Source of the DNA: Promethearchaeota archaeon
Lineage (GTDB): Archaea > Asgardarchaeota > Lokiarchaeia > Sigyniarchaeales > SOKP01
DNA length: 64,000 nucleotides
Direction of reading: 5' to 3'
Assembly (NCBI GenBank): GCA_048939995.1
Contig: JBHLOY010000001.1
Location: 192,001-256,000 of the forward strand
The notes below the pieces were generated by a model. That model was given only the letters and a program-made list of their open reading frames with translations, did not search any database and was not told the DNA's origin. The position numbers and the translations under genes were made by a program. Positions 28,658-32,799 of the stretch are shown here, one piece after another; the stretch's first letter is position 1; each line of letters starts with the position of its first letter.

Positions 28658-29887
28658 TTGTTAGTAATTTTTATACTCAAATATATACTGGTAGAGACCT
28701 TGATATTATCTAAAAAATCTATAATCCTAATTTTATTCTCAATCTTTTTTATTAATACAGCAGCTATAATGGCTTTTACTTACGTACCTCAATACTTATT
28801 ATTACATTTAGGTACAGGGAAACCCTTAATGCAGCTTATAATTACAATTTTTCCCTTAACTGCTTTCATTTTTCCCCCATTATATGGATTTTTTTCTGAT
28901 AAAATTCAAAATCGTTTTATATTTATGGTTTTTGGAACCATTGGAATGAGTTTTTCTTATTTATTCCTATTACTGACTCAAAATTTATTATATATAGTCA
29001 TACTACTATTTATATTTGGTTTTTTCATGGCATCATCCAATTTGTTTATGACTTTATATGCAGAGTTAGTAAAAGATGATAAAACACTCATTTCTTATTA
29101 CAATGCTACAATCGTGGCTGCTTGGTTTGTTGGAGCTCAATCTGGTGGGATTTTTATTAGTTTTTATAGTATTGAAAATCTATTTTTATTTATATTTATA
29201 GTCTCTATCCCTGCTATCGTAACTGTAGTGTTTATAAAGGAGAATAGGTCTAAAATATTAGAAACCTATCAAGAAAAAGAGAAGAAAAGGACTAGTGAGC
29301 TTGTTTTCAATAGTACTGAAATAGAAAAACCCATTTCAAAATCTGTGTTTTTTGGATTATTTTTCAGAAATTTTAGTATCAAACCTATTATGCCAATCCT
29401 TGCTGTGATTATGAGTTTTCATTTAGGAACTTATACAGAAATTGGATTTTTGATTGGTATCAATTTCCTATTACAATTTTTTCAAATGTTATTAGTAGGA
29501 AAGATAATGACGATTAAAAATATCAAATCATTCATGATTATTGGGTATGTGTTAAGTGCAGTTAGTATTTTTGGGTATATTATTTCAACTAATTTTTGGA
29601 GTTATTTATTTTCTCAATTTTTGGTCTCCTTTAGTTATTCCCTGCATTGGGCTGCCACTATCACATATATCGCTCAGAATACGACTCCAAAAAATAAAGG
29701 AAGATATATAGGTTTAGCTAACACGAGTGTCTTTTCAGGAAGTTTTCTAGGAGGGATATTATTTAGCGTCTTATTATTAGCTTATAATTCAGATTATTAC
29801 ATTGCTATGTATTTTATGATAATATTTCCAATAATTTCCACATTTATTATAATTTTTAAATTTCGATTAAAAGATTCATCTAATTAA
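28658..29887 (+). CDS. MFS transporter
   Basis: 12 TM; 'GFFSDKIQNR', 'PKNKGRYIG'; start probably somewhat downstream. Confidence 0.85.
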   Translation: MLVIFILKYILVETLILSKKSIILILFSIFFINTAAIMAFTYVPQYLLLHLGTGKPLMQLIITIFPLTAFIFPPLYGFFSDKIQNRFIFMVFGTIGMSFSYLFLLLTQNLLYIVILLFIFGFFMASSNLFMTLYAELVKDDKTLISYYNATIVAAWFVGAQSGGIFISFYSIENLFLFIFIVSIPAIVTVVFIKENRSKILETYQEKEKKRTSELVFNSTEIEKPISKSVFFGLFFRNFSIKPIMPILAVIMSFHLGTYTEIGFLIGINFLLQFFQMLLVGKIMTIKNIKSFMIIGYVLSAVSIFGYIISTNFWSYLFSQFLVSFSYSLHWAATITYIAQNTTPKNKGRYIGLANTSVFSGSFLGGILFSVLLLAYNSDYYIAMYFMIIFPIISTFIIIFKFRLKDSSN

Positions 29888-31850
29888 CATTCCAAAAAGA
29901 AGATAAATTCTCTCTTAATGCATTAGGTTTATCAGGAACAATTTCTAATTCTTTCCTTATCCATTCAGAAATCCAATTATGTTTTGCCTTAAATCTGCTA
30001 TCCATAAAAATTATTGCTCCTTTATCACTTAGTTTTCTTATTGGACGCCCAGACGCTTGATTTGCTCGTTGAACAGCGGGATAAAGATAAGCAAAATTCC
30101 AACCTTGTTTATTAAATACTTTATCATAATACTTTATTTTAGCATTAACCCGTGGTAAGGGTAAATGATACGGAAATCCCGCAATTATTACACAGTTCAT
30201 AAATTTTCCAGGATAATCCTCACCTTCTGAGTTTCTCCCTCCACAAACACCTAATAAGACTGCTCCGTTATTAACTTCTGCCATTGATTTATAATTATTT
30301 ACCAAAGCAAAATTTTCTGAAGCAGACAAGCCTGAATCTTCAACAAATAATTTTTTATTGTTTTTTTCAATAATAATTTCTAAACCATTTGAAACTAAAC
30401 CTTCTAATACTTTATAAGAGGCACAAAAGATGCCAATATTAGCAGGTGTGCAGCTTATAATTTCATCAATCTTAGTAATCATTTTTTTATACATTGCCGA
30501 GGTTCTGTTAACTTTGCGTGTGTCTACTCCATCTATTATTAAAGCACAGATGTTCTTTTTGCTAAAAGGGGATTCAGCAATAATGCCTTCATATTTTTTG
30601 CCACTTTCCTTAAAACCTATTAAATTTGTATAAACATGTGGATTAACAGTTCCTGATAGATTAAGACAAGTAAAACATTCTTTTAAAATAGGGATTGTGA
30701 GGTCCCTTGGATCTAAAGCTACGATTTCTAATAAAACTGATTTTTTTCCTTTTTTCTCCCTTCGAGTATAACAAAAAAAGAAATTAGCTAGTGAGTAAGT
30801 TTGGAACCATTTAATCCAAAATTCTGCTAAATTCCCAATATGATTCCTTGAAAACTCTCCATTAGCAATCCTTTGTTCATGTATTGAAGCTCCAAAATCA
30901 TACAAATCTCTTATAAGATTTTCTAATTGCATTAGACTTGATAAGCCAAGGCTTTTAATGAGATATTGAAGAAATGATTCTGGATTGATCTCCTCTTCAT
31001 AATTATTGAGCGTCTTAGATACTTTCTCTAAATGGTCAAGCATAAAGTTAACAAAACTTTGTAAAGATATAGGAGAGTTGTACAATTCTAAATCTCTCAA
31101 GGCTAATCTTAATAAATATGGAGTGATTTGGGTTGAATTGATTTCAGTGGCTACATCTATCAAATTATGACATTCATCGATGACTAAAATACAATTCATT
31201 AGTTCTTTACCTAAAAAATTTAAAAAATTAACTCTGATAAAGGGATTAAAAAGCCATTGATAATTACATATAACTAAGTTCATTTCGTTTAAGAGGAATT
31301 TACTTAAAAAATAAGGACAGAATACTTTTTGTTTACAAAAATCGATAAGCTCTTCAGCATCTAATGGTTTATTTATTATTTCTGGAACAATTAATTTTAG
31401 ATTATCTAATTGTTCTTTTTTTCTAATTAAGTTATTGTAAGGAACGCAATTTCTATTCTTCCTCAAATCACTACAAACGGACATAGCTTCTCTTGGGTTT
31501 AATTTAAGCTGTATTAAAGTTTTATTTAGGCACATCTCATTGCGACCCCTAATTGAGAGGCCATTAACTTTATTCTCTAACTTAGAATTTTCCAATAACT
31601 TCGAGATTTTATTTAATTCCTTAATAATCCTTGTATTTTGGGCATGTGTTCGACATAAATATATAATTTTCAATTCTTTTTCATAGGCTAAGGGTAATAA
31701 TGCACTAAGTGCAATAATTGTCTTACCTGTACCATTCGGAGCCGATAGCAGTACGACTTTCTTTTCCCTTGAAGTTTTTTCAATTTTTTTTATTATATTC
31801 TCTTGTTCTTGTCTAAATTTTTCATAAGGAAAAAATTCAAGATAGTTTAT
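29880..31850 (-). CDS. xpd: XPD/Rad3/DinG Fe-S helicase; start extended from 31673 to ATA at 31850
   Basis: Upstream in-frame FFPYEKFRQEQ (Q motif) and APNGTGKT (Walker A); Fe-S Cys, DECHN, SEGED, QASGRPIR. Confidence 0.92.
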   Translation of the reverse strand: MNYLEFFPYEKFRQEQENIIKKIEKTSREKKVVLLSAPNGTGKTIIALSALLPLAYEKELKIIYLCRTHAQNTRIIKELNKISKLLENSKLENKVNGLSIRGRNEMCLNKTLIQLKLNPREAMSVCSDLRKNRNCVPYNNLIRKKEQLDNLKLIVPEIINKPLDAEELIDFCKQKVFCPYFLSKFLLNEMNLVICNYQWLFNPFIRVNFLNFLGKELMNCILVIDECHNLIDVATEINSTQITPYLLRLALRDLELYNSPISLQSFVNFMLDHLEKVSKTLNNYEEEINPESFLQYLIKSLGLSSLMQLENLIRDLYDFGASIHEQRIANGEFSRNHIGNLAEFWIKWFQTYSLANFFFCYTRREKKGKKSVLLEIVALDPRDLTIPILKECFTCLNLSGTVNPHVYTNLIGFKESGKKYEGIIAESPFSKKNICALIIDGVDTRKVNRTSAMYKKMITKIDEIISCTPANIGIFCASYKVLEGLVSNGLEIIIEKNNKKLFVEDSGLSASENFALVNNYKSMAEVNNGAVLLGVCGGRNSEGEDYPGKFMNCVIIAGFPYHLPLPRVNAKIKYYDKVFNKQGWNFAYLYPAVQRANQASGRPIRKLSDKGAIIFMDSRFKAKHNWISEWIRKELEIVPDKPNALRENLSSFWNVN

Positions 31851-31956
31851 TTAAAACACCGTGATATCCGTCATATTTTAATAACATTATAATTTAAAGT
31901 TTATATTAGGAAAGGGAGTATAAAATTTTAATTATTAATAAGATTATAGTAAGAAA

Positions 31957-32799
31957 ATGACTGAAGATAGTTCTGAAAAACCTCATTTACTTCTGAGGGA
32001 AATTTTCAGTGAAATTTTACTAAGAGACATTATACTTTTTGCAGTTCTATTTTTATTTACGTTAGCCCAGTCTTGGGATAATATATTTCTATTTTTATTT
32101 CCAATTATTAGTTTTGCCTATACAATTTTCTTTAGAATTATTAGCACGAATAATTGGAGGATTAAAGGTCGTTCTAGTTCAATTATTTATAATCCGTTAG
32201 GATTAGAGAAAAAGCATGCTAATAGACTTGTTTTTTGTACTCTAATTCAACTCATCTTATTGTTATGGATTGGTGCAGAATCTCTATACCATCCACAATT
32301 GATAGATGATTATGATATCTATTTCAATATTCTCTTTTTGTTTATTTACTCATTTGGATTTTATTGGATAATTTCAGACACCTGGAAACATTGTAAAATT
32401 GATTTAGGAGATACTTCAATTTCGTTCTTAAATAGGAAAAAGTATAACCAAATCCTAATAATAAGTCTAACAACATTTATCGCTCTAAATATTTCAAATG
32501 TTTTATATGCTTTAGCCATTCTAACCAATTTAACTAAAGGAATAAATATTTATTTGCCAGGAACAGGAATAGAATCTTCTGGGCCAATGCAAATTACTAT
32601 CATCTCAATTTTTATTCTTTTAATTTCTCCATTGTTAACGACCTTCTTACTCATAATAATTTATAGAGATATTAACAATTTCTCAACTGAAAACTTATAT
32701 AATGCATTAAAAGATGTCCCTGAAAACTCAAAACAACAAATATTGGATAATCTTAAAAATTTAAATAAAAAATTAGAAGAATCTTTATCAAGGGAATAA
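31957..32799 (+). CDS. Hypothetical multi-pass membrane protein
   Basis: About 6 hydrophobic segments; no family recognised. Confidence 0.6.
   Translation: MTEDSSEKPHLLLREIFSEILLRDIILFAVLFLFTLAQSWDNIFLFLFPIISFAYTIFFRIISTNNWRIKGRSSSIIYNPLGLEKKHANRLVFCTLIQLILLLWIGAESLYHPQLIDDYDIYFNILFLFIYSFGFYWIISDTWKHCKIDLGDTSISFLNRKKYNQILIISLTTFIALNISNVLYALAILTNLTKGINIYLPGTGIESSGPMQITIISIFILLISPLLTTFLLIIIYRDINNFSTENLYNALKDVPENSKQQILDNLKNLNKKLEESLSRE

Follow-up and report, generated by a model that had tools for sequence, protein, structure and literature searches.

The xpd gene of a Promethearchaeota (Loki-type) metagenome-assembled genome (G000, 30.5% GC) appears to be translated from an ATA codon by Shine–Dalgarno (SD)-guided near-cognate initiation, similar to bacterial infC and ccpN. 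We estimate the probability of this reading at about 86%. The gene lies on the minus strand of the analyzed stretch of 64,000 nucleotides (the window), to which all positions refer. Translation from ATA was one of two options raised in an earlier note on this DNA, and it is supported here by the conservation of GGTG and ATA among relatives, by purifying selection on codons 2–59, by some orthologues having ATG in its place, and by a genome-wide excess of SD-led ATH codons (ATA, ATT or ATC). The other option, a start-codon mutant, is not supported: in the genus as a whole, ATA is the prevailing state and no private mutation.

Start region and encoded helicase

Profile matches and structure alignment place the xpd/rad3 Fe–S helicase gene at 29880..31850, with a frame of 656 codons that is open from ATA (31848..31850) down to the stop codon at 29882–29880. 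The ATA is proposed as the start codon based on orthologue conservation and a public sister-species record that has Met at this site. A GGTG motif (31857..31860) 6 nt upstream is assigned as the SD core, as it is present in 34 of 35 orthologues without a canonical start (see below) and complementary to the anti-SD at the 3′ end of 16S rRNA, the latter sequence being taken from same-genus genomes. Spacing between GGTG and ATG peaks at 5–8 nt in the source genome, and the 6 nt of xpd fall in this canonical range. The match is contiguous over 4 nt only, short of the extended or strong SDs of the S. aureus type. Within the spacer, an in-frame TAA (31851..31853) directly precedes ATA; it is a derived feature, common only to the sister species G010. 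The GTG of the SD itself is in frame with xpd but cut off by this TAA, which also closes a putative in-frame mini-ORF of seven codons starting at ATG 31874 (31851..31874). The Q motif (residues 6–16, 31803..31835) and Walker A (residues 37–44, 31719..31742) were identified by motif reading and alignment to archaeal XPD. Both lie upstream of the first canonical in-frame codon, TTG at 31671..31673 (codon 60), which is read as an internal Leu because the position is not kept as a start codon across orthologues. Upstream of the Q motif, no near-cognate codon other than ATA 31850 occurs; ATA is next found at codons 19–20, past the motif. ATA 31850 is thus the sole possible start upstream of essential sequence, as in infC and ccpN. 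Re-reading of the minus strand and of the translation reproduced the earlier description of TAA, ATA, GGTG, the two motifs and TTG 31673 exactly; what that description left out is the mini-ORF from ATG 31874 and the in-frame GTG of the SD.

Further upstream, an AT-rich element (31891..31907, unstranded) is conserved 54–63 nt from the start column in many orthologues, and probably represents the BRE/TATA boxes of xpd overlapping those of the divergent gene at 31957. The promoter metagene of the source genome gave weak peaks only, too weak to calibrate the transcription start. At its other end, xpd overlaps the 3′ end of a convergent MFS transporter gene by 8 nt (29880–29887).

The protein itself, a predicted helicase, is ordinary when compared to archaeal XPD/Rad3. 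A profile search assigned it to this family (TIGR00604, 299.6 bits versus a cut-off of 246.95), Pfam DEAD_2, HBB and Helicase_C_2 were matched in the 656-aa product, and Q motif, Walker A, Walker B and motif VI are all present. Four cysteines between Walker A and B (C107, C126, C135 and C178) coincide with the Fe–S cysteines of solved archaeal XPD. Alignment to T. acidophilum Ta0057 and the structures 4a15, 2vsf and 9p55 covers residues 12–624, including the Q motif, Walker A, the four-cysteine Fe–S domain, the arch/HBB region and motifs II–VI. The gene is single copy in the source genome (one match in a genome search), and the frames of G000 and G010 are both free of frameshifts and stops within 656 codons. 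Between these two species, codons 2–59 show a dS of 0.84, a dN of 0.068 and a dN/dS of 0.081. As the whole gene gives the same ratio (0.079), the part of the frame that precedes the first canonical codon is concluded to be translated.

The start column and competing readings

Alignment of 103 distinct orthologous xpd starts, the check proposed in the earlier note for Lokiarchaeia, revealed 35 distinct short-form orthologues without any ATG, GTG or TTG between the upstream stop and the start column. In these, the column is occupied by ATA (33 sequences), ATT (one) or ATC (one), and the first canonical codon follows 31–105 codons downstream. GGTG is found 6–7 nt before the ATA, ATT or ATC in 34 of the 35, although kinship makes such counts overstate independence. 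The lone sequence without GGTG (L066) resembles a frameshifted copy of L067. In 31 sequences the spacer is 7 nt long, which puts the GTG of GGTG out of frame, so that it cannot be the start. In clades with a 6-nt spacer the in-frame GTG could serve as start, as it probably does in L084, where the column reads TTC. What separates GGTG from ATA is variable, with in-frame stops in four of the sequences, in keeping with a non-coding spacer. Codon and SD are thus conserved among relatives with a spacer free to vary, the pattern known from infC and ccpN. Moreover, ATA accounts for 90% of the 48 orthologues that combine an SD with ATH at the start column compared to 11–44% at 14 internal Ile columns, indicating that the start codon itself is constrained.

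ATG occupies the exact column in ten short forms. GGTG is present in none of the ten; three have AGTG. On a quick SH-aLRT tree of XPD with midpoint root, where an ancestral ATA is a parsimony impression, about five separate places combine the acquisition of a canonical ATG, in the column or slightly above it, with loss or decay of GGTG (L100; L009/L010/L018; the L027/L029/L045 group; L003; L005/L006/L048). About a quarter of the genus orthologues start with ATG and carry an additional N-terminal zinc ribbon that the source XPD lacks (L007, L008, L011, L012, L017, L034–L036, L051, L057 and others). This extension comprises 55–90 residues with four cysteines and gives a weak Rpb9-type Pfam match. 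On the tree, long forms alternate with short ones, suggesting repeated gain or loss of the domain, and the ATA start may once have been an internal Ile codon. Four orthologues titled Odin-, Hod-, Hermod- or Thorarchaeota (L083, L099, L105, L108) have an XPD nested inside the Promethearchaeota genus, and their titles are probably misassigned.

The source is a metagenome assembly and the site was compared in contigs, not raw reads, which leaves room in principle for an assembly or sequencing error that conceals a true ATG. Contigs from three studies (X1, X3 and X8, X1 possibly being the source sample) cross the start site without any difference. A diverged strain contig in X1 differs in neighboring bases and keeps TAA–ATA, and GGTG, TAA and ATA all recur in the sister species (85% aa identity). 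Hence TAA–ATA is not a sequencing error, and the probability of a hidden ATG is close to negligible. A pseudogene or start-codon mutant, or a truncated protein without Walker A made from TTG 31673, is hardly more plausible. A few apparently broken genes do exist in the source genome, and archaeal XPD is often dispensable. However, dN/dS in the disputed segment is 0.08 at a dS of about 0.8–1.0, where relaxed selection is not seen, and the single-copy gene retains its motifs and four Fe–S cysteines in a frame intact in both species. The same start arrangement is found throughout the genus.

Two further readings involve ATG 31874. In a termination–reinitiation scheme, ribosomes would translate the seven codons, stop at TAA and restart at the adjacent ATA, with GGTG retaining them on the mRNA. 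The mini-ORF indeed ends exactly before ATA (stop-to-start distance of 0) and is kept in G010, several relatives also have an ATG at about −24, and in H. volcanii coupling is effective across very short distances (PMC10666635). Still, the usual geometry there is an overlap of −4 or −1, not 0 (PMC10666635), and the stop-abutting arrangement is found in only two of the 35 orthologues, G000 and G010, most others having no ATG within 35 nt. Same-clade L031, L083 and L025 carry ATA, AAA or an out-of-frame shift at the codon in question, and ATG 31874 may precede the transcription start, a TATA-like box being just 24 nt above it. This ATG is disconnected by two independent events, the TAA in G000/G010 and a 1-nt deletion in L025, and the gene is left unharmed. 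Given its restriction to two of 35 orthologues, reinitiation would be at most a local helper that is not needed. We consider it unlikely; even under this scheme the start codon would be ATA, and only recruitment would differ, in the G000/G010 pair. Less likely again is a start at ATG 31874 or the in-frame GTG with the TAA passed by readthrough, editing or splicing. The frame from this ATG into XPD is open in the close relatives L003 and L004, but such a mechanism leaves the other 33 orthologues without an upstream in-frame canonical codon unexplained, and the region is colinear with relatives and contains nothing intron-like. No unusual RNA structure was detected around the start region (z-scores of −0.29 and +0.58).

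Proposed initiation at AUA and known systems

For SD-guided initiation at ATA, we propose that GGUG in a short xpd mRNA leader base-pairs to the anti-SD of 16S rRNA, so that AUA comes to lie in the P site. The pairing would keep AUA there long enough for accommodation of Met-tRNAi and release of aIF1, with the archaeal initiation complex accepting AUA despite the third-position mismatch. The product would be the full 656-aa helicase with Met at position 1, at a yield probably below that of AUG; codon use, initiator tRNA, efficiency and leader length are inferred here. The TAA would be a neutral change in a non-coding spacer. In the genus, short-form XPD would normally start with ATA, as one example of a tolerance of AUA, AUU and AUC behind an SD that extends across the genome, with CUG and ACG as rarer members. 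Such an SD-held AUA is in line with a model for P. abyssi where SD strength, spacing and codon pairing together determine how stable the initiation complex is (PMC6237735). Two points speak against the ATA reading: archaeal aIF1 reportedly selects against non-canonical starts (PMC6237735), and the SD consists of a 4-nt core only, unlike the extended SDs at bacterial non-canonical starts (PMC13009471).

In bacteria, SD-led near-cognate starts are known for E. coli infC and pcnB (AUU) (PMC13009471; 10.1101/063800) and for S. aureus infC, ccpN and citZ (AUA) as well as cvfC1 (AUU) (PMC13009471). Reporters of ccpN, citZ and cvfC1 reached about 10–30% of AUG (PMC13009471), and near-cognate starts in E. 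coli gave 1–2% of AUG (10.1101/063800). The xpd start shares with the infC/ccpN type an AUH codon at normal spacing behind an SD and a protein that would otherwise be truncated; like ccpN and cvfC1, it is conserved among relatives. It differs in the archaeal machinery (aIF1, aIF1A and aIF2), in the short SD core and in the lack of any sign of autoregulation. The number of near-cognate genes per genome also differs, with tens estimated here from sequence alone and two to four in bacteria.

Taken on its own, the xpd case is modest. ATA is a listed initiator of NCBI translation table 11, and the gene model itself is not new, as the sister-species record MFX1498356.1 and other NCBI records begin with M at the ATA column. 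These starts are automatic predictions and inconsistent across the XPD family: other records start 25–105 residues in, some of them without the Q motif or Walker A. A related case is atubA of Kariarchaeaceae, whose database protein fell short until its start was placed at a “rare ATT start codon” with a likely ribosome binding site in front (PMC13394414). It is a single case from another Asgard class, based on alignment and structure prediction and not treated as general. In the literature searched, which covered few subscription papers, AUH initiation in Asgard archaea was not the subject of any systematic report, and no paper on the XPD ATA-start pattern was found. Reviews list AUG, GUG and UUG as archaeal starts and describe SDs as rare in Lokiarchaea, judging from annotated starts (PMC7531240, PMC12993045). 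Such statements are biased by annotation because gene callers skip ATH codons.

Genome-wide near-cognate start candidates and initiation factors

At the 5′ ends of long frames in the source genome, strong SDs precede in-frame ATA in 41 of 1169 and ATT in 43 of 1434 cases, against a baseline of 1.4%. For a cleaner test, GGTG sites without a canonical start were collected and codons 5–9 nt downstream compared in and out of frame. ATH occurred at 63 of 139 in-frame positions (45%) and at 12 of 298 out-of-frame positions (4%), the background in frame being 16% (p = 1e-16). For G008, a genome of the same genus, 800 kb gave counts of 15/36 and 5/79, respectively. The excess over chance in G000 corresponds to about 40 genes among 3053 frames from the GGTG motif alone; as 130 GGTG sites lead to canonical starts, near-cognate codons make up roughly a quarter of GGTG-led starts. 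Small 400-kb samples of more distant Asgard genomes gave 2/3 (G044), 4/13 (G060) and 5/43 (G072, versus 5% background, p = 0.07).

An initial screen, which looked for conservation upstream of canonical starts, yielded a mixture of true cases and broken genes; a column test on orthologue pairs took its place. Compared with G008, two conserved genes of G000 (C11 near 487216 and C37 near 141832, both minus strand) are interrupted by an in-frame TAA or a break of the frame, and are pseudogenes or assembly errors. Among 506 G000–G008 pairs, start columns where one genome has ATG and its counterpart lacks a canonical codon showed ATT (7), ATA (2), ATC (1), ACG (1) or CCA (1) opposite the ATG, and a non-start Leu codon in no case. 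Internal Met, by comparison, is replaced by Leu 290 and by Ile 319 times, and the lack of Leu at start columns is significant (p = 0.002). An SD of at least 4 nt precedes 8 of the 10 ATH start columns versus 29% of ATG/ATG starts. From these data we estimate a rate of some 1.5–4% of genes, with at least 1–2% of those in the source genome probably using ATA, ATT or ATC. Further candidates behind SD-like motifs in the window are found on the minus strand at 51938 (ACG), 9824 (ATC) and 7816 (ATA), the first belonging to a GcvT-like gene for which G008 has TTG/ATT.

A sizeable share of SD-led starts thus uses codons that gene callers skip, and the larger interest of XPD is as the best-documented column of a genus-wide habit of SD-licensed AUH starts. 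With ATA plus SD and ATG without SD, switched several times, the column constitutes a natural experiment and lends itself as a reporter of how stringently start codons are chosen in the aIF1/aIF2 system, the source of eukaryotic AUG selection.

SUI1 (aIF1) was not found in G000 or G010, and aIF1 together with both flanking genes was not found in any of five genomes checked (G000, G010, G018, G023 and G024). Loss of aIF1 was considered as a cause of ATA use and rejected: a block of about 40 kb around aIF1, which lies beside the 16S rRNA gene in relatives (L193/L210/L194), is missing from the “98% complete” G000, and the absence is probably an assembly gap. Initiator tRNA and 16S rRNA were likewise not found in G000.

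In relatives, aIF1 itself seems to fall under the same habit. Of 14 same-genus copies, ten have no canonical start, a TGA closing the frame three codons above an ATT that is invariant in all 14. An in-frame ATG, GTG or TTG before the zinc knuckle is missing from the same-genus aIF1/SUI1 sequences L134–L137, L139–L144 and L150, and likewise from L124, L126, L129, L152, L213 and L224. Elsewhere in Asgard the start codon of aIF1 is ATA or CTG in several genera and ATG, GTG or TTG in others. By analogy to infC, the ATT start is a candidate for feedback control. In loop 1 of aIF1, Trp takes the position of P. abyssi Tyr32 in nearly all genomes of the order, whereas class-level outgroups keep Tyr. 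As Tyr32 is needed to stabilize 30S:mRNA in P. abyssi, the substitution possibly bears on start-codon stringency, and is given as a lead only. A more far-reaching proposal, tentative and on balance doubtful, is a two-tier code in Lokiarchaeia: AUG would need no SD, a short SD would license AUA, AUU and AUC on a few percent of genes including XPD and aIF1, the level of aIF1 would act as a global dial on this near-cognate regulon, and XPD would be kept at AUA by selection for low or conditional expression.

Regarding the other initiation factors, G000 encodes two aIF1A paralogues. Its aIF2-gamma frame (L303:148-1770, contig C37) spans 540 codons and includes an N-terminal extension of about 110 residues that resembles a helix-hairpin-helix domain followed by a linker.
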